Origin: a virus
Taxonomy: Duplodnaviria > Heunggongvirae > Uroviricota > Caudoviricetes
IMG/VR virus record: IMGVR_UViG_2617270960_000007
Direction: 5' to 3' (one strand)
DNA length: 38,248 nucleotides
Shown: positions 1 through 37,333 of the stretch, piece by piece
Layout: every line of letters starts with the position of its first letter
Numbering within the stretch: position 1 is the stretch's first letter
The notes under the pieces: generated by a model
The model's input: only the letters and a program-made list of their open reading frames with translations
The model's database searches: none
Told to the model about the DNA's origin: nothing
Translations under genes and position numbers: made by a program

Positions 1-1002
1 TTACCCTCTATTGTCAAAAGGGTTCAATTCAACAGCAGCCTCTAAATGACCTGGAGCAAAATGCGCATAACGCATAGTCATTTTTATATCGCTATGCCCC
101 AGTATTTTTTGCAACACAAGAATATTTCCGCCCCGCATCATAAAATGACTGGCAAACGTGTGACGTAGCACATGAGTTAATTGCCCATCAGGAAGCTCGA
201 TCTTCGCTCTCTTAATTGCAGCGTCAAAAGCCTCATAACATGGTGAAAATAGCGCTCCTCGTTTTTTAGGAAGCATAGCTTGCAATTGAGGTGAAATCGG
301 TACAGTGCGGTTCTTCTTTCCTTTAGTTTTAACAAATGTGATTCGACCGGGCAGTACTTGAGATTGCTTTAATCCTTCTGCTTCACTCCACCGAGCACCA
401 GTCGCAAGCCCAATACGGACAACAACCCCCAAATCTTTATTCCGTGACTCATCACACGCAATCAGAAGGCGTTCAATCTCATCTACATACAGAAACGCCA
501 GTTCCTTTTCTTCCTCACGAAACTTGCGAATACCAGTCAGGGGGTTTTCACCAGACCACTCTCCAAGGCGCTTCAGTTCGGCAAAAACAGCATGTAGATA
601 TGACTGCTCGCGATTAACGGTTGCTTCACTAAGTTTTTTCTTCCCCTTGGGATTCCATTCTCCTGATAGCCTTCTTTCCCGATAAGTAGCAAACATATTT
701 TTGTCAAACTGAGAAGCAAATGGATCTCCCAGCCTGGAACAAATCGCCTCAAGTTTGACTTTGCGCTCTGCACCAGAGGACAAGGTTTTACCGTACATCT
801 CAAACCAACGAGCAATCAACTCAGAAAGACGAGGACCAGAACCATCTTGAAACTCGTCTCCAACTCTACTATTCATTAAACGGCGCTCATAAGAGAGCGC
901 CTCACTTTTTGTCGCAAACTGTTTACGAATGCGTTTTCCCGATGCCCCGTAGGGATAACATTCGCAAAGCCATTTACCTGATGGAATCTTACGAACCGAC
1001 AT
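1..1002 (-). CDS. int: Phage tyrosine integrase (P2 Int family)
   Basis: 333-aa ORF ending ...HVLRHTFASHFMMRGGNILVLQKILGHSDIKMTMRYAHF, the R-H-R-Y catalytic signature region of tyrosine recombinases; first gene of a P2-like prophage layout; stop codon at window pos 1-3. Confidence 0.9.
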   Translation of the reverse strand: MSVRKIPSGKWLCECYPYGASGKRIRKQFATKSEALSYERRLMNSRVGDEFQDGSGPRLSELIARWFEMYGKTLSSGAERKVKLEAICSRLGDPFASQFDKNMFATYRERRLSGEWNPKGKKKLSEATVNREQSYLHAVFAELKRLGEWSGENPLTGIRKFREEEKELAFLYVDEIERLLIACDESRNKDLGVVVRIGLATGARWSEAEGLKQSQVLPGRITFVKTKGKKNRTVPISPQLQAMLPKKRGALFSPCYEAFDAAIKRAKIELPDGQLTHVLRHTFASHFMMRGGNILVLQKILGHSDIKMTMRYAHFAPGHLEAAVELNPFDNRG

Positions 1003-5278: not shown

Positions 5279-5400
5279 GAAACCAGAACATGCACACACA
5301 AAAAAACCGCTTGCCATGCCGCAATCGGTCAGGTTACATTTCCGCTGCACCTCATAAAACGGGTGCCGGGATTCTCAACCCGATACAGAGCAAAGCGCAT

Positions 5401-5421
5401 AACCGCGCAAGCGGTTTTTTT
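5401..5421 (+). terminator. Rho-independent terminator-like hairpin (GCAA tetraloop) with T7 run
   Basis: aaccgc-gcaa-gcggtt followed by ttttttt; its 14-nt arm is the exact reverse complement of aaaaaaccgcttgc at 5301-5314. Confidence 0.4.
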
Positions 5422-5600
5422 GTGCGTACTGTATTGCCACGTCTTTTTCGCGTCAGAATTATGGCGGGGCGTACGGGGCCGACTTCGGTCGGGCCGGATT
5501 CTTTGCTCTCCGGTGTTGAGAACCCTGTACGTCTCGCCACCCCGAGATTCTCAACTCTGGATGGTGAGTTATTTCTATCACCGAGCAAAGAGGCCACACC

Positions 5601-9253: not shown

Positions 9254-10375
9254 ATGGGCGACTTAGGTGGTATTCAGTCAGATTTAGCCCAACTAGTTAG
9301 ACTGGTAATAACTGAACAGTATGATGACGTTCGGTTATATGTCGCTCGCTTGGTGCGTAAATATCGGGAAACTATGCCTGCTCTATCCGAGCAGCTTGAT
9401 CTTTATCTACGAAATAAACCGCAAAAGCCTGCACAAAGCCTGCGTAAGGTTACCGCACCAAAACAAGCGCTGCCTCAAACCATGCCTGTGGACGAGGAGT
9501 CAAGGCTTACCTTGCTTAAAGCACCAAATGAAAAGATTGTGAGCAAACCTCTACTGTCCAGTCAGATAGAAGACTCACTGGATCAAATTATTCTTGAGCG
9601 GAAGCACATCGATCGCCTCAAGACTCTCGGCTTACAACCAACACGCTCTGCCATTTTTGTTGGCCCTCCGGGTGTAGGTAAAACACTTACGGCAAGCTGG
9701 TTAGCTCAGAAATTAGGGGTTCCTTTTTACGTTCTTGATTTAACGGCAGTAATGAGCAGCTATCTGGGCAAAAGCGGAAATAACCTTCGGGCAGCTCTAG
9801 ATTTTGCGAAGAAAGGGCCGTGCGTTCTTCTGTTAGATGAAATTGATTCAATCGCCAAAAAGAGAAGTGATGATTCTGATGTTGGAGAATTAAAAAGACT
9901 TGTTACCGTAATACTCCAGGAGGTTGACGAATGGCCGTCTTCTAGTTTGTTACTTGCTGCAACTAACTTCGCTGAGTTGATTGATCCAGCACTATGGAGA
10001 CGTTTTGATTTAGTGCTCAATTTTGAGAAGCCAGATAGCGAAAGTATTAAAGAAGCAATTAAACGCTTTTCAGGTCCCGACTACGCGATTTTTGCACGTT
10101 GGATAGATCTACTGGCTATTATGTTCAAAAATGAATCTTTTAGTAATATTGAGCGTTCTATCAACAAATTCCGACGTTCGGTCGCTTTAGGTATTTCCTC
10201 AGATGAAGAGTTGATTGGGTCGTTCATTAAAGATGGTTTATCAGAATTAGACAGGAATGAACGTAAAGAAATTGCAGTTACTCTAAAAAGAAATTCTAAA
10301 TTATCCCAGCATGCCATATCAGACTTAACCGGAGTCAGTAGGGATACAATTAGAAAATACAGTCAAAAAATGTAA
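9254..10375 (+). CDS. AAA+ ATPase (classic clade) with C-terminal HTH; candidate defense-system ATPase
   Basis: Walker A GPPGVGKT (aa 137-144), Walker B VLLLDEID (aa 191-198), sensor ATN (aa 236-238), second-region-of-homology ALWRRFD; C-terminal LSQHAISDLTGVSRDTIRKY HTH-like; own AT-rich promoter region and SD AAGAGG; AT-rich. Confidence 0.85.
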   Translation: MGDLGGIQSDLAQLVRLVITEQYDDVRLYVARLVRKYRETMPALSEQLDLYLRNKPQKPAQSLRKVTAPKQALPQTMPVDEESRLTLLKAPNEKIVSKPLLSSQIEDSLDQIILERKHIDRLKTLGLQPTRSAIFVGPPGVGKTLTASWLAQKLGVPFYVLDLTAVMSSYLGKSGNNLRAALDFAKKGPCVLLLDEIDSIAKKRSDDSDVGELKRLVTVILQEVDEWPSSSLLLAATNFAELIDPALWRRFDLVLNFEKPDSESIKEAIKRFSGPDYAIFARWIDLLAIMFKNESFSNIERSINKFRRSVALGISSDEELIGSFIKDGLSELDRNERKEIAVTLKRNSKLSQHAISDLTGVSRDTIRKYSQKM

Positions 10376-10398
10376 TACAGCATAGATAAGGAGTATGT

Positions 10399-12624
10399 AT
10401 GGCGAAAACTAATTTTCTGATTGGACGCGGCGAATTATTAACCAGCGATATTCCTGGTCCTAAAAGAGTGCCCGGAAAAGCTGAGGTTTATTCTCTTTAC
10501 GAATCGAAACAACGGTTATTGCCGCAAATTGCATCTACTATAGAAAATTTTGATGATTTACCCAGTCAGGCATGTCCTTATGATTATGCTGTGGCTAAGT
10601 TGACGTTGAATCCGAGCTATATTGCACGCTCTTTTTTTCCTGCAAAAATGCTTAAGTCTACCGGGTTAACGTCTATTGGCAGCAGGACGGTAAAAATTAC
10701 GCCTCAAAGCTGGAAGCGAAAAGTTACTGTGTCAGAAGTAACTACGACACAAATGTTTGTTGCTGGTAAAAGAGAATCCTTCAAAGAGTTACCTCATTGG
10801 GTGTCAGGACTCAAAGAGTTTTCTGACGAAGCGATTGATTTTGCACGCATAGAACGGTTCGATGCCTATTTACCCGAAGAGCGTATTATTACCATTGGTG
10901 AGCAGGATTCTTCGTATTTTGAGGTTGGTGTTCATTTACTGCCAGATAATGAACAAGACTTGGTTCAGCAACAATTTGTTCAGTTTGCATCAAATTTGAA
11001 CATCAAAGTACATACTTCATTAGCTTTTACCGCTGGTACATTATGGTTCGTGCCAATCCAGGCCGATAGAATTACTATTAGTAAGCTTGCGAAATTTACA
11101 TTTGTACGAGTAATAAGACCGGTTCCAAGATTGCGTGGGATTAGACCAATACAAAGGAACTACGGTCCTTTAGCTCAGTGTAAATTGCCTGCTGAGGGCC
11201 CCGTATCTTCAGAAATAAAAGTTGCGATTCTTGATGGTGGTTTACCATCAGAGCACGCTATATCGCCATGGTTAAAATCCTATAGAGTTTTGGACGATCA
11301 TGCAGAGGATGATCCAGACGGTTTAGAGCATGGTTTAGCTGTGTCTTCAGCCTTTTTATTTGGACCAATAAGTAATAAATCGGAAGCGAAAAGACCATAC
11401 TCTTATATTGATAACTTAAGAGTTTTGGACAACAAGACCTGCCAAGAAGATCCGCTGGAACTATATCGAACTTTGGGCTTTATTGAAGAGGTATTGTTGT
11501 CTCGCCAGTATCAGTTTATCAATCTAAGTTTAGGTCCAGACCTACCAATTGAAGATACGGAAGTTCATGCATGGACTTCCGTTATTGATGATTTGTTAAG
11601 TGATGGTGAAACATTAATGACTGTTGCTGTTGGCAACAATGGAGAAATGGATCGCAAGTCTGGTAATGCAAGAATTCAAGTACCAGCCGATTGCGTTAAT
11701 GCTCTTGCTGTTGGTGCTTGTGATACAGTTAATGATACGGAATGGAAACGAGCACCATATAGCGCCATTGGGCCAGGCAGAAGTCCTGGCGTGATGAAAC
11801 CGGATTTAGTTGCGTTTGGTGGTGACACAGACGAGTACTTTCATGTTTTAGGTAAAGGTAAGAAGCCTGTAATCATACCCCAGCTAGGAACAAGCTTTGC
11901 CTCTCCTTACGCCTTACGAGCAGCTGTTGGTGTTCGGGCAATTTTAGGGAACGATTTGAGCCTACTAGCAATCAAAGCTTTGTTAATTCATGCGTCAAAA
12001 CAGCTTGATCATCCTTGTACAGAAGTTGGCTGGGGAAAACTTCCTGAAGACTTGAACGACATTATAGTCAGCCCTGATGGTGTTGCCCGTATCGTCTACC
12101 AAGGTGAATTGAAACCAGGAAAATACTTACGCGCTCCTCTTCCAATACCTGAAGGTGGCTTGAAAGGTAGAATAAACTTAGCGGCAACTTTCTGTTATGC
12201 AACAACCACTGATCCACAAGACCCAGCTTCCTATACAAAAGCTGGTTTGGAAGTGACATTCCGGCCAAATGATTCAAAAATCAAAGACGGAAAACAAAAT
12301 GCTGAAACCAAGGGATTCTTTGAACTGGCCAAATATTCAACTGAAAGTGAGCGACGTTCTGACATGGGCAAATGGGAGACCGTCTTACATAATTCGAAGA
12401 ACATGCTAGGTTCAACTCTAAAAAATCCTGTATTTGACATTCATTATAACGCTCGTGAGGCCGGTGCAAGCATAGCCAGCCATAAGGCAGAAAAAATCAA
12501 GTATGCTCTTATAATTACCATTAAGGCATCAAAGCACCAAGACCTGTATAACGAAATTTTACGTACTTATAATCAGGTGCTCGTGCCAATTCAACCGCAA
12601 ACATCAATTCCTATTCGTTCGTAA
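10399..12624 (+). CDS. Subtilisin-like serine protease (peptidase S8) with about 270-aa unknown N-terminal domain
   Basis: Catalytic triad motifs in S8 order: VAILDGG (Asp about aa 279), HGLAVSS (His about aa 311), GTSFASPYA (Ser about aa 499), oxyanion VGNNGE (Asn about aa 413); 24 nt after the ATPase gene, same strand; AT-rich. Confidence 0.85.
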   Translation: MAKTNFLIGRGELLTSDIPGPKRVPGKAEVYSLYESKQRLLPQIASTIENFDDLPSQACPYDYAVAKLTLNPSYIARSFFPAKMLKSTGLTSIGSRTVKITPQSWKRKVTVSEVTTTQMFVAGKRESFKELPHWVSGLKEFSDEAIDFARIERFDAYLPEERIITIGEQDSSYFEVGVHLLPDNEQDLVQQQFVQFASNLNIKVHTSLAFTAGTLWFVPIQADRITISKLAKFTFVRVIRPVPRLRGIRPIQRNYGPLAQCKLPAEGPVSSEIKVAILDGGLPSEHAISPWLKSYRVLDDHAEDDPDGLEHGLAVSSAFLFGPISNKSEAKRPYSYIDNLRVLDNKTCQEDPLELYRTLGFIEEVLLSRQYQFINLSLGPDLPIEDTEVHAWTSVIDDLLSDGETLMTVAVGNNGEMDRKSGNARIQVPADCVNALAVGACDTVNDTEWKRAPYSAIGPGRSPGVMKPDLVAFGGDTDEYFHVLGKGKKPVIIPQLGTSFASPYALRAAVGVRAILGNDLSLLAIKALLIHASKQLDHPCTEVGWGKLPEDLNDIIVSPDGVARIVYQGELKPGKYLRAPLPIPEGGLKGRINLAATFCYATTTDPQDPASYTKAGLEVTFRPNDSKIKDGKQNAETKGFFELAKYSTESERRSDMGKWETVLHNSKNMLGSTLKNPVFDIHYNAREAGASIASHKAEKIKYALIITIKASKHQDLYNEILRTYNQVLVPIQPQTSIPIRS

Positions 12625-32550: not shown

Positions 32551-32707
32551 AGCTTCAGCCCCTTGTATCCGTTAAATGATTCGGCAACAATCATCACCCA
32601 CCACGCGCGTAATCTCACCCCTGCGCCGTTCTCCCGACCCGGCGACAACAAAAAGCAGTAACCCCCTCTGCACGCACATGCGACCATGCCGCACAGGGAG
32701 GGAACAG

Positions 32708-33817
32708 ATGACCGACACCACCATGCAATTGCTCAGTCAGGGCACAGACCCCGTGAAAATGCCAGATTTTGATATTCTCGCGGAGGGTAAAACGCTGTCA
32801 GGCGTGGCAGAGCGCCTGATGAGCCTGTCACTGACCGACAACCGGGGATTTGAGGCGGACCAGCTCACCATCACGCTGGATGATGCGGATGGTCAGTTGC
32901 AGCTACCGCCACGGGGCGCGCGCCTGACGGTTCTCATTGGCTGGAAAGGAGAACCGCTGACAGAAAAAGGCACTTACATTGTTGATGAAATCGCTCACGA
33001 AGGACCGCCGGACAGGCTGACTGTTTCAGCCAGAAGCGCAGATTTTCGGGATGAATTTAACGTTAAACGTGAAGTGTCCTGGCATGATGTGACCGTTGAG
33101 CGCGTGGTATCCGCCATCGCTCATCGGTACGGCCTGAAACCGCAAATCAGCGAAATGCTGATGGATATCGAAATCGACCACGCCGACCAGACCGAAGAAA
33201 GCGACATGTCCTTCCTCACGCGCATGGCGGAAATGCTGGGCGCAATCACCACGGTAAAAAGCGGTAACCTGTTATTCATCATGCCCGGCGGTGGCGTGAA
33301 CGCACAGGGCCAGCCGTTGCCCTCGTTCGCCATCACACGCAGCAGCGGCGATCGCCATCAGTTCCGCATTGCTGACCGCGAAGCGTATACGGGGGTACGC
33401 GCTTACTGGCTTGATCTTAATTACGGGAAAAAGAAAAAAGTCAGCGTGAAACGCCGCAAACCGCCAAAACCCAAAAAGGAGAAAAGCAGCAGCCGTGAAG
33501 GTGATTATATGGAAGGCGCAGAAGGCAATGTGTTTGTGTTACGCAAGACTTATCAGAACGAGCAGGCAGCAAGACGCGCAGCGGCGGCAAAGTGGCAGCA
33601 GCTACAACGCGGAGCCGCATCATTTTCCATCACGCTGGCGCGTGGACGTGCAGAACTCTACCCCGAAATGCATGGCACGGTAACAGGATTTAAAAGCGAG
33701 ATTGATAATCAGGACTGGATTATTGCAAAAGCCGAGCACACTATTGATGACAGTGGCTTTACCACACAGCTTGAGCTTGAAGCAAAAATCCCGGAATGGA
33801 TAGCGGAAACAGAATGA
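32708..33817 (+). CDS. D: Tail protein D / late control gene D family
   Basis: ATG at 32708 with GGGAGGG SD; about 369 aa; lysine-rich low-complexity insert KKKKVSVKRRKPPKPKKEKSS; precedes ogr region. Confidence 0.85.
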   Translation: MTDTTMQLLSQGTDPVKMPDFDILAEGKTLSGVAERLMSLSLTDNRGFEADQLTITLDDADGQLQLPPRGARLTVLIGWKGEPLTEKGTYIVDEIAHEGPPDRLTVSARSADFRDEFNVKREVSWHDVTVERVVSAIAHRYGLKPQISEMLMDIEIDHADQTEESDMSFLTRMAEMLGAITTVKSGNLLFIMPGGGVNAQGQPLPSFAITRSSGDRHQFRIADREAYTGVRAYWLDLNYGKKKKVSVKRRKPPKPKKEKSSSREGDYMEGAEGNVFVLRKTYQNEQAARRAAAAKWQQLQRGAASFSITLARGRAELYPEMHGTVTGFKSEIDNQDWIIAKAEHTIDDSGFTTQLELEAKIPEWIAETE

Positions 33818-34216: not shown

Positions 34217-35356
34217 GTGGGAAACAATAAAGTGAAATTAGGAAGAAATGATAAGTGCTGGTGTAATTCAGGACTTAAGTATAAAAAGTGCCATCTTGGT
34301 CGAGACCGTGAAACTCCGGTATCCAAAGCCGAGGCACTGAAATTTTCAAAGTCTCTCTCGCAGAGAAAGGCATGTTATGCGCCAGCATCCATGCACGAAG
34401 ATTGTGATAAACGCATCGTTCAGGCGCATACGATATCTAAGAGCAGTAGCCTTAAGGCGATCGCCGACTCCAGCAATCACGTCATGGGGGTGATAATGAA
34501 CTTAGCAAGCCTGATGAGAAACAACGGAAAATGGCTTCCCGAGAAGATCGGTATCAATCAGGCATCCACTTTTACAGGATTTTGTGCAGTTCATGACAGA
34601 ATCTTGTTTTCATGCCTAGAGAACGAAAAATTTACAGGCACGGACGAGCAGTGCTTTGCCTTAATGTTTCGTTCATTGTCTAAAGAAATTTACGCCAAAG
34701 AAGGGGGAGTGCTATCTTCCGATTTTGCTAAAAATGCCGATAAAGGAAAGCTACAAGTTGAACAGTATTATATTCAGAAATTAATCGACCAGCACCAAAG
34801 TGGCTTAAATGCAGCAATAATTGAATTAAATAATCTTAAAACTAGCCTCGACCGCATCCTACTTAGCAGGCAATTTTCAGAAATTGAAAGTGTTATCTTC
34901 ACTTTTGCAGAGCCTTTACCAATTGTAGTTTCGTCAATTCTTTCACCGGAGAGGGATTTCGATGGGACCAAAATTCAGGATTTGAGCGATCTTACAGTGT
35001 CGGCGGAACAAGTATGTTTCAATGCTTTTTCCTGCGGAGGTAAGGGATATGTAGTGTTCAGTTGGCTGAGAACTTCAACAATTATCAGACGTTTTATACG
35101 GACACTAATTAAGATCCCGGCTAACAGGATGTTCAATACCCTTCTGTATTTTTTCTTCACAAAGGCCGAAAATATATATTCATCCCCTGAGTGGTGGGAC
35201 AGGCTCAGTGATAAACAGCGAGAGAATATCGGCAACATGATTATGTCAGGGGTTGAATTTTTTGGCAGACCTACATCACAGGTTGATCATTCCGTTGATT
35301 ATAACGCCGCTGCACTTGAAGAGATAACATGCAGCAACAACGAAATTTGCAGTTGA
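34217..35356 (+). CDS. SEC-C motif (zinc-binding) domain protein of unknown function, prophage cargo
   Basis: N-terminal GRNDKCWCNSGLKYKKCH matches the SecA C-terminal metal-binding (SEC-C) motif; about 350 further residues with no recognised motif; GTG start (alternative GTG at 34232); AT-rich. Confidence 0.6.
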   Translation: MGNNKVKLGRNDKCWCNSGLKYKKCHLGRDRETPVSKAEALKFSKSLSQRKACYAPASMHEDCDKRIVQAHTISKSSSLKAIADSSNHVMGVIMNLASLMRNNGKWLPEKIGINQASTFTGFCAVHDRILFSCLENEKFTGTDEQCFALMFRSLSKEIYAKEGGVLSSDFAKNADKGKLQVEQYYIQKLIDQHQSGLNAAIIELNNLKTSLDRILLSRQFSEIESVIFTFAEPLPIVVSSILSPERDFDGTKIQDLSDLTVSAEQVCFNAFSCGGKGYVVFSWLRTSTIIRRFIRTLIKIPANRMFNTLLYFFFTKAENIYSSPEWWDRLSDKQRENIGNMIMSGVEFFGRPTSQVDHSVDYNAAALEEITCSNNEICS

Positions 35357-35645: not shown

Positions 35646-35906
35646 ATGTTCCGTTGTCCGCTTTGTGGCGCATCTGCCCGAATCCGCACCAGTCGTCCGG
35701 AAAACGATTCAAACACTGTGCGGCAAAAGTATTACCAGTGTAACAACCTGGAATGCGGCGTATGCTTCTCAACACTGGAAGCTTTCCATAAATTCACATC
35801 AAAACACGCCTCCGGCGTTCACTCTTCGGAAGGTATCCCGTGGCATGAGCTGCCAGCTTCACACAGGGGAAACAATCAGATGAGTTTGCCTTTACCTCAG
35901 AATTAA
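35646..35906 (+). CDS. ogr: Late gene transcriptional activator, Ogr/Delta zinc-finger family
   Basis: MFRCPLCGASARIRTSR...YYQCNNLECGVCFSTLEAF carries the Cys-X2-Cys...Cys-X4-Cys pattern and resembles P2 Ogr as recalled; SD AAGGGAGG upstream. Confidence 0.85.
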   Translation: MFRCPLCGASARIRTSRPENDSNTVRQKYYQCNNLECGVCFSTLEAFHKFTSKHASGVHSSEGIPWHELPASHRGNNQMSLPLPQN

Positions 35907-36097
35907 CAGGCAGAATTGCCGGAGTAACAAAAAAACGATAGATTACCCGCGGGTGCCTTTCGGCTGATGGTCGGAGGGAATACCCGAAGGCCGGATGTGG
36001 AAAGGCCCCGGAAAACATTTCTGTTTAACCGAGGCCCTAACATATCTACCTTAAGCAAGTGATAGGTTAGCGCCTCTCCAACAAAGGAGCAAGCGCT

Positions 36098-36238
36098 ATG
36101 TCGCAAAAATCGCTTACGGCCATCACGTTCTGCGTGACGGTAATCCTCATCATCTGGATGCTACACGGTTCGCTGTGTGAAATACGGATGAGCTTCTGGG
36201 GAGCGGAGTTTGCGGCGTTCTTACAGTGTAAGCAGTAA
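36098..36238 (+). CDS. Hok/Gef-family type I toxin (small membrane peptide)
   Basis: 46 aa MSQKSLTAITFCVTVILIIWMLHGSLCEIRMSFWGAEFAAFLQCKQ: one TM helix followed by the SLCEIR...(E)xAAF signature of Hok/Gef; terminator hairpin follows. Confidence 0.6.
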   Translation: MSQKSLTAITFCVTVILIIWMLHGSLCEIRMSFWGAEFAAFLQCKQ

Positions 36239-36326
36239 GGAAACCGCGACGGGGGAGCAATCCCCCGTCAATCGGTTGCTAAGGTTGGCTGAAGTGGCAC
36301 CCTATCTCACAGACATGAACAACAAA

Positions 36327-36358
36327 CCCGCAGCGTAAGAACTGCGGGTTTTCTTTTT
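36327..36358 (+). terminator. Rho-independent terminator downstream of hok-like gene
   Basis: cccgcag-cgtaagaa-ctgcggg followed by ttttcttttt. Confidence 0.6.
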
Positions 36359-36426
36359 GGAACTATCACTAGCTAGTGTACCGTTAACGGCACATAATGC
36401 TCGCACAACAAACCTGTTAAAAGAGA

Positions 36427-36708
36427 TTACTCAGCATTCTCCTGCTTCCATTGCCGGATCATTTCATCGGTAACATCACCCTCATAACATACCACGTCAT
36501 ACCCTCCATTACGGCTATATGCACTGCGTCCACCACATCTACTACCATTCCTTGCATGATTATAAGGACACGCACAATTGCCTGGATAAGATTCAATGGA
36601 TTCTTTAATTATTTCTTTTTTGATCTGAGCATCAGACTTTCCTGTTGCTGCATATCCACTAAAAGATACTAAACAAAGGCAGATTGCCATTAATAAACCA
36701 CATCGCAT
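36427..36708 (-). CDS. Small cysteine-rich secreted protein, unknown function
   Basis: Likely start MRCGLLMAICLCLVSFSGYAATG (signal peptide); mature part has 4 Cys in GNCACPYNHARNGSRCGG...VVCYEG; the track ORF extends to 36822 but its upstream part lacks a signal sequence. Confidence 0.4.
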   Translation of the reverse strand: MRCGLLMAICLCLVSFSGYAATGKSDAQIKKEIIKESIESYPGNCACPYNHARNGSRCGGRSAYSRNGGYDVVCYEGDVTDEMIRQWKQENAE

Positions 36709-36944
36709 ACCGATACACTCTATTACTAACCAATCATAGCCCACATCATAAAATCGAGATGAGGAGCACAATACCTTTAACAAGAAGGTGTCATAACGAT
36801 AATATGTCGTGCAATTCATCAAAAAAAAGATCTATATCAAAGAGATAGAACTCTTATCAGTGCTTCAGACATCGGCATTCGAGGCAGCAGAAAAACAGTA
36901 AATCTGACGAATTTGCCTTTTCCCAAGATGTTGTCAGATTAAAA

Positions 36945-37095
36945 AGATAGATTAGCGCAGGTACCTGTTGGGGGATTGCAGGAGGAAAAATGAAGTCGAG
37001 TGGAAAAATCCCAGAAAAATTTTTGTTTAACAGAGGTCCTGGTTCACTATACGAAATACGGAGGAGCTGCAGAAGAATTCTGCTTCATCCTTAGA
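36945..37095 (+). pseudogene. Degenerate second copy of the hok-like locus (leader plus 3-prime part of toxin ORF, internal deletion)
   Basis: Segment gaaaaatttttgtttaacagaggtcct...ggttcactatacgaaatacggaggagc aligns with 35990-36040 and 36166-36195 of the intact copy, but the toxin TM-coding portion is missing. Confidence 0.35.
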
Positions 37096-37180
37096 GTTTA
37101 AACAGCACGTGCACTACCACTGTTTCTGCATATCGCCACACCATCGCCACTCTACCGCCATTGCACAAAATACAAATACG

Positions 37181-37204
37181 AAAAAACCACCCGAAGGTGG
37201 TTTC
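37181..37204 (-). terminator. Terminator of tRNA operon (minus strand)
   Basis: On minus strand: accacc-ttcg-ggtggt hairpin followed by tttttt, about 45 nt downstream of tRNA-Leu. Confidence 0.6.
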
Positions 37205-37246
37205 ACGACACTGCTTATTGCTTTGATTTTATTCTTATCTTTCCCA

Positions 37247-37333
37247 TGGTACCCGGAGCGGGACTTGAACCCGCACAGCGCGAACGCCGAGGGATTTTAA
37301 ATCCCTTGTGTCTACCGATTCCACCATCCGGGC
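37247..37333 (-). tRNA. leuZ: tRNA-Leu (anticodon UAA)
   Basis: 87-nt minus-strand sequence GCCCGGATGGTGGAATCGGTAGACACAAGGGATTTAAAATCCC...GGGTACCA with long variable arm; anticodon loop uuUAAaa. Confidence 0.9.

Follow-up and report, generated by a model that had tools for sequence, protein, structure and literature searches.

The window analysed here, a stretch of 38,248 nucleotides, is Escherichia coli DNA with pgsA-glyW-cysT-leuZ at its right end, and the part from the integrase gene to leuZ is a P2-like prophage. The integrase gene int lies at one end (1-1002, minus strand), D (32576-33817) and ogr lie at the other, and a direct att repeat is present, as is typical of P2-like phages (Peduoviridae, Xuanwuvirus-type); replication gene A and head and tail genes are also carried. 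The ogr gene (35646-35906, plus strand), coding for an Ogr/Delta zinc-finger late activator (Pfam PF04606, 52.4 bits; RefSeq), is the last conserved P2-type gene before the cargo. Between ogr and the right limit of the prophage we find an intact hok gene, a gene for a 93-aa Cys-rich protein (36427-36708, minus strand; RefSeq WP_001303543.1; PHROG 27544, E = 7e-58) and, 0.8 kb downstream of the intact hok, an incomplete second copy of it (36897-37109). On inspection only, the N-terminus of the Cys-rich protein resembles a signal peptide.

The right limit of the prophage is attR, a 121-bp duplication (37181-37301) comprising the 3'ETS-leuZ trailer and the 3' part of the tRNA-Leu gene as far as the anticodon loop. 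Strain E5 has the same prophage, and an identical 121 bp is found there at the left junction beside yecA (attL), while in K-12, which is without the element, the site is uninterrupted and matches the window only from 37178 rightwards. Since the 121-bp repeat is the att duplication, everything to the left of 37181 is prophage DNA, both hok elements included. A sequence-only reading of this DNA had set the two copies at the prophage/chromosome junction; they lie instead within the prophage arm, between ogr and attR. A 13-bp match common to P88, CCACCCGAAGGTG, was considered as the att core and is ruled out by the 121-bp repeat in E5. P88 evidently uses another att site, and its att region differs from that of the present prophage.

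The intact hok gene (36098-36238, plus strand; Pfam, PHROG and RefSeq) encodes the 46-aa peptide MSQKSLTAITFCVTVILIIWMLHGSLCEIRMSFWGAEFAAFLQCKQ. Residues 7-44 match Pfam PF01848 (HOK_GEF) with 30.1 bits (E = 3.7e-7), above the gathering score of 22 bits, and the peptide also matches PHROG 251 (E = 2.5e-23). In identical genomes RefSeq names the product Hok/Gef family protein (WP_000078920.1), an annotation present in hundreds of E. coli genomes and in the records of phages P88 and Chuche, and the exact protein is found under this name in at least 1000 public contigs. The hydrophobic stretch, as read from the sequence, covers residues 6-24. Aligned with HokB, HokC and R1 Hok, the peptide has C12, T14, L26, C27, E28 and E37 in conserved columns; in a published Hok logo, positions C16, T18, L30, C31, E32 and E41 are conserved in >80% of Hok peptides (bioRxiv 10.1101/2025.08.07.668861). 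The Cys and charged residues on which the sequence-only reading had staked its Hok/Gef assignment are thus all in place. The peptide appears to be under selection, because the ORF is kept at 45-46 aa in 10 of 10 relatives and dN/dS against diverged relatives is 0.25-0.41. The nearest named K-12 toxin is HokA, the best NCBIfam model (NF007290), with a score of 35.8 bits that is far under the equivalog cut-off of 89. These results support the assignment of the ORF as a Hok-family type I toxin gene, with toxicity as a prediction from its sequence.

The promoter of hok is predicted at 35916-35944 (plus strand), with a -35 box TTGCCG (35916-35921), a 17-nt spacer and a -10 box TAGATT (35939-35944). 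The boxes match the consensus at 8 of 12 positions, and in 10 relatives the TTG of the -35 box and the T-A-.-A-.-T pattern of the -10 box are invariant. A strict generic promoter scan called neither this promoter nor that of Sok (described below); the hok promoter was missed because it matches the consensus at only 8 of 12 positions, and the evidence for both promoters is therefore conservation, not consensus strength.

From the start of the Rfam match, the minimum free energy (MFE) fold and covariation, the full-length hok mRNA is predicted to run from 35951 to 36356 (plus strand, ~406 nt), and this transcript folds with an MFE of -178.1 kcal/mol (z = -7.3). In the MFE fold, its first 15 nt (35951-35965), a tac-like 5' element, pair with an fbi-like fold-back element at 36287-36302 that includes GGCACCC (36296-36302), which locates candidates for the tac and fbi elements that the sequence-only reading had proposed to look for. 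This fold-back helix is 95.3% paired over the 10 relatives, and all changes in it are one-sided. The ribosome-binding site of hok, GGAG at 36086-36089, pairs with CUCC at 36076-36079 within a hairpin (36068-36098) extending to the first base of the start codon, and the helix is 98.2% paired in the relatives. Directly past the stop codon there is a conserved 3' stem-loop (36247-36270), 100% paired and with compensatory changes in 4 pairs. The transcript would end at an intrinsic terminator (36324-36356), a hairpin at 36324-36351 with a T-run, then TCTTTTT, as had been recognized from the letters alone; the homology to P88 and Chuche stops here. When the 3' end is removed in silico, the 5' end of the mRNA refolds locally, which hints at processing.

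Projection of the fold onto the 10-sequence alignment left 90.2% of the cells paired, compared to 37-43% in slid controls, in which the partners were moved by 1-3 columns; since the structure was taken from one member of the alignment, the percentage paired is somewhat favoured. The compensatory changes are the stronger evidence: they were observed in 23 pairs, compared to 3-11 in the slid controls. None of 500 shuffles reached the observed values for pairing or covariation. The leader at 35951-36108 matches the full model of Rfam RF01794 with 44.8 bits (E = 2.2e-8), short of the gathering score, 59 bits. Although named 'sok', this model represents the hok-sense strand, namely the leader between the mRNA 5' end and the hok ATG; for K-12 hokB and hokC it matches the hok strand (110 and 118 bits) and not the strand of the annotated sokB and sokC. 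As modelled, the mRNA thus appears to have a hok-type architecture, with a conserved promoter, fold-back, sequestered ribosome-binding site, 3' stem-loop and terminator.

On the minus strand, a Sok promoter is predicted at 36064-36092, with a -35 box TTGCTC (36092-36087), a 17-nt spacer and a -10 box TAACCT (36069-36064). It extends over the hok ribosome-binding site, and all 10 relatives share AGGTTAGCGCCTC and AGGAGCAAG unchanged, which supplies a candidate for the sok promoter that the sequence-only reading had suggested locating. We take its geometry to agree with that of the R1 sok promoter. The predicted Sok RNA (35995-36056, minus strand) is ~60 nt long and has a terminal hairpin: the 74-nt stretch from 36056 to 35983 that holds it folds into a hairpin of -32.7 kcal/mol (z = -4.9). 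When the annotated K-12 sokC is mapped through the Rfam model, Sok falls at ~35995-36052, in agreement with this prediction. The predicted start of Sok lies 42-46 nt upstream of the hok ATG, compared to 48-49 nt for sokB and sokC. The antisense transcript is accordingly a predicted one, placed by its promoter boxes and fold.

The intact element is of a known, annotated kind: its exact protein is public, and prophage Hok loci have been catalogued and are enriched in prophages (bioRxiv 10.1101/2025.08.07.668861). The cassette is found next to ogr in P88 and Chuche (Peduoviridae, Xuanwuvirus; 94-98% nucleotide identity). Stx phages, 933W among them, carry it downstream of lom (75-83% identity), and it also occurs on several plasmids (74-94% identity). 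The RNA elements are identical in kind throughout, while the cargo 3' of the hok terminator differs phage by phage. Genome contigs matched the 15-mer GGGTGCCTTTCGGCT only by chance and in unrelated phyla, the pattern being too short.

Like R1 hok/sok (parB) and K-12 hokA-E, the present locus has the conserved Cys/Thr/Leu-Cys-Glu/Glu positions in its peptide, a long mRNA with a fold-back, a sequestered site, a 3' stem-loop and a terminator, and an antisense promoter overlapping the hok ribosome-binding site. It differs from them in having no mok that overlaps or reaches hok, in its shorter peptide (46 aa, compared to 49-52 aa for R1 and K-12 Hok) and in the lower score of its leader on RF01794 (44.8 bits, compared to 110-118 bits for hokB and hokC). 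Another prophage-borne type I hok/sok locus is hokW-sokW of the Sakai prophage Sp5, a working toxin-antitoxin (TA) system (PMC8621323), and phage records label the present gene 'MokW-like host killing' via PHROG 251. Identity with hokW was rejected: HokW has 51 aa, and the published primers, which show the coding start ATGAAGCAGCAAAAGGCGATG (MKQQKAM) and the leader GGGTGCTTGAGGCTATCTGCC (PMC8621323), match nothing here.

We consider it highly probable that the intact copy is a hok/sok-type type I TA cassette carried as autonomous cargo, between ogr and attP, by a P2-like (Xuanwuvirus/P88-type) leuZ prophage, with a weak promoter, a closed mRNA, repression by Sok and a likely role in retention, and that the second copy is a fossil. 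In the mechanism that we propose, a weak constitutive promoter would give a stable hok mRNA of ~406 nt, kept closed by the helix between its 5' end and the 3' fold-back element and by the ribosome-binding-site hairpin. By analogy with plasmid R1, slow 3' trimming would open the mRNA, and the short, unstable Sok would pair with the leader at ~35995-36056 and block Hok synthesis. If the locus were lost or transcription stopped, Sok would decay first, and the 46-aa Hok, again by analogy with R1, would then enter the inner membrane and kill or arrest the cell.

The most likely role of the cassette is retention (addiction) of the prophage arm; phage exclusion and help in lysis are possible alternative roles. 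That it serves mainly as anti-phage cargo (abortive infection or exclusion) or as a lysis helper, and not as a prophage-retention device, is an unlikely alternative with several observations on its side. The prophage has further defence cargo elsewhere, the IetAS system at 9254-12624; the cassette moves among unrelated phage types, always in cargo positions; and R1 hok/sok is reported to cut T4 plating, and hokW-sokW to raise Sp5 release about twofold (PMC8621323). However, all that decay has left of the prophage in KFu023 is ogr-hok-cargo, which is the outcome expected of a retention module. Under the preferred reading, retention, the addiction would not be absolute, since strains of the EDL933 type (O157:H7) have lost ogr-hok beside IS30, and loss of the module is therefore tolerated.

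The feature that sets the locus most clearly apart from R1 is the lack of mok. The sequence-only reading had proposed locating a mok frame, and in the intact copy no frame reaches hok: all three are closed at 36052-36070, and there is no start-like codon between 36070 and the hok ATG. A short upstream ORF of 19 codons (35995-36054, plus strand; stop TAA at 36052) has an invariant ATG and is at best a mok vestige. In the 10 relatives, the ORF from this ATG has 1, 8, 8, 15, 19, 19, 24, 25, 61 and 78 codons, and only the two longest overlap hok; the other 8, among them phages P88 and Chuche and Stx phage 933W, have no mok that reaches hok. A 31-aa ORF at 35967-36062 was rejected as mok: it has no ribosome-binding site, 2 of 10 relatives do not conserve its ATG, and its frame is displaced by indels. 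In R1, Hok can be made only if mok is translated as far as the hok ribosome-binding site, and premature mok stops upstream of the hok start abolish toxicity (PMC9841398). A survey preprint states that mok was left out of its analysis (bioRxiv 10.1101/2025.08.07.668861).

Given the R1 requirement and the lack of a mok frame, Hok may be poorly translated here, and the intact-looking locus could be translationally silent or strongly attenuated, domesticated like the inactivated chromosomal loci of K-12. The 19-codon upstream ORF ends at the TAA at 36052, 31 nt upstream of the GGAG at 36086, the three closed frames recall the premature stops that abolish toxicity in R1 (PMC9841398), and the ribosome-binding site lies within a conserved hairpin. 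We nevertheless regard a silent locus as improbable, because the same lack of a hok-reaching mok is seen in 8 of 10 relatives, including isolated phages, and because the Hok ORF (at its dN/dS of 0.25-0.41), the promoter, the fold-back, the ribosome-binding site and the Sok promoter are kept in all 10. Selection on the Hok peptide implies that the peptide is made.

Since the upstream ORF overlaps hok in only 2 of 10 relatives, coupling to mok is not a conserved trait of the 46-aa Hok subfamily. We read its absence as a family variant and not as a sign of decay, because the members without mok keep the peptide, both promoters and the RNA structure. With no mok running into hok, Sok would have to work through duplex-triggered decay or some structural effect, and not by a block of mok. 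We tentatively propose, as a possibility that falls just short of an even chance, that the 46-aa Hok cluster works without mok, with Hok translated directly from the hairpin-sequestered site and Sok acting purely through duplex-triggered decay or a closed leader.

The second copy had been noticed in the sequence-only reading as a diverged repeat at 36945-37095. A BLAST self-comparison of the region and a family profile from which the window's own copy was left out confirm the repeat and show that it starts earlier, at ~36897, where it includes the end of an ogr-like gene. By BLAST, 36901-36923 aligns with 35874-35896, the 3' end of ogr, 36941-37040 with 35932-36038 (72.9% over 107 nt, E = 2.4e-8) and 37041-37068 with 36167-36194 (82% over 28 nt). 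In the nhmmer search, 36938-37040 corresponds to profile positions 30-140 (E = 7.7e-6) and the abutting 37041-37109 to positions 268-340 (E = 0.021), and because these abutting segments match separate parts of the profile, a single internal deletion of 127 nt accounts for the copy.

Three parts of the fossil can be told apart, all on the plus strand. The first (36897-36940) is the fossil ogr 3' end, the last ~10 codons of an ogr-like gene, which reads NLTNLPFPKMLSD and a stop, compared to NQMSLPLPQN and a stop. The second (36938-37040; nhmmer and pairwise alignment) is the fossil hok promoter and leader, in which the -10 box TAGATT is kept, the spacer is 11 nt compared to 17, and the tac element is mutated; the leader is kept up to the middle of the Sok target and is followed by the GSLCEIR codons. 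The third (37041-37109; profile match) is the 3' coding part of hok from GSLCEIR onward, 3' of which neither a fold-back element nor a terminator was found. The membrane-helix part is missing, as had been noticed, but the loss is wider, in that the 127-nt deletion also took the Sok promoter, the segment for the Sok 5' end, the ribosome-binding site and the start codon.

Copies of the fossil are present in ~646 of 5426 complete E. coli genomes, in two forms that are ~87% identical, and the 87%-identical variant in KFu023 has the same deletion junction. No segment of the arm is more diverged than the fossil, with 77-88% identity compared to 93-97.5% for its flanks. Two plasmid-labelled matches in the search for records with 36362-37186 (0.44 and 1.4 Mb long) are, we suspect, pieces of chromosome. 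The fossil copy is absent in P88 and Chuche. A fused ORF of 34 aa across the fossil (36990-37094) was rejected as a gene, its ATG being ATA in EDL933 and an early stop interrupting it in KFu023.

These features indicate that the second copy is a fossil without function, derived from the ogr-hok end of a related phage. The fossil retains 44 nt homologous to the Sok-coding region and persists with an identical deletion junction in two ~87%-identical lineages, but it is very improbable that it tunes the intact locus through a Sok-like antisense RNA or as a leader decoy, as the Sok promoter and Sok 5'-end segment fall within its deletion, its sense promoter has the 11-nt spacer, its fused ORF is broken in both other variants and it has diverged the most in the arm.

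The sequence-only reading had paired one intact with one decayed hok-like locus, and likened the decay to that of chromosomal hok copies. A decayed second copy is confirmed; it is not a chromosomal hok, since the ogr tail that it carries, to the left of att, points to derivation from a whole ogr-hok phage end. The fossil would most likely have arisen by module exchange, in which a new ogr-hok-cargo block was joined to an older ogr'-hok'-attP(leuZ) end. The scar of a tandem prophage with an internal att site was rejected, as there is no second att copy between 36360 and 37180, and recombination would for that reason be the simplest history. Because no sequenced phage record with 36362-37186 was found, this origin is offered as a conjecture.

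The fossil with its ogr tail would thus cleanly document how modules are exchanged at the att-proximal end of P2-like phages. The 46-aa Hok subfamily is missed by RF01794 at its gathering score, so that the antitoxin goes unmarked in automated RNA annotation. As most members lack mok, the subfamily provides a natural test of the requirement for mok coupling in Hok synthesis. If the 46-aa Hok cluster does work without mok, the translational coupling deemed essential in R1 would be dispensable in a natural hok/sok lineage.

The Rfam family RF01794, called 'sok antitoxin', matches the hok-sense strand, over the leader, and not the strand on which sokB and sokC are annotated; this is seen at the K-12 hokB and hokC loci (L018 502-654 and L017 567-718) and at the hok leader of the window (35951-36108). 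All members of the 46-aa Hok subfamily are missed by this model at the gathering score (35.6-47.6 bits versus 59).

EDL933 and KFu023 carry one and the same prophage, which has decayed to different degrees in the two. An IS30 has taken the place of the terminal part of D together with ogr and hok in EDL933 (L004 4034-5600). The remnant in KFu023 consists of only ogr, hok, the cargo and the fossil, the decayed second ogr-hok copy, and adjoins IS elements, a group II intron and a TIR-domain gene (L003 1-5100).

The cargo includes a gene for a Cys-rich protein of 93 aa (36427-36708, minus strand), which is assigned to PHROG 27544 and has no Pfam family. Its N-terminus, by inspection, reads like a signal peptide, and the Cys-rich core of the gene shares 69-75% DNA identity with genes on Xanthomonas and Spartinivicinus plasmids. 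A further cargo gene of the prophage, inserted between D and ogr (34217-35356, plus strand), encodes a protein of 379 aa, annotated as 'YecA family', that bears a SEC-C motif at its N-terminus; PADLOC gave only weak matches to it, all of them in the N-terminal ~50 residues that include this motif. Replication gene A is followed by the two genes of an IetAS anti-phage defence system (9254-12624, plus strand), identified by family matches as the AAA ATPase IetA (373 aa, E = 1e-77) and the S8 subtilase IetS (741 aa, E = 7e-52), at the place that in P2 is the tin/old variable cargo position. In the early region, adjacent Rfam matches to isrK (63 bits) and C4 antisense RNA (78.5 bits) (5347-5544, plus strand) lie just upstream of a 205-aa ORF that matched no family, and overlap its start.

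Immediately to the left of the att duplication, within the best-conserved part (93%) of the prophage right end, the direct repeat ATCGCCAC occurs at 37132-37139 and 37143-37150 with an 11-nt period; these candidate sites may be bound by the integrase as arm-type sites. The att sequence itself (37181-37301, and 1274-1394 of L139, the left junction in strain E5) is made up of prophage-borne copies of the 3'ETS-leuZ small RNA and of the 3' portion of tRNA-Leu, here identical to those of the host. Since the phage att holds both, lysogens express a leuZ 3' half and a 3'ETS sponge RNA that come from the phage.
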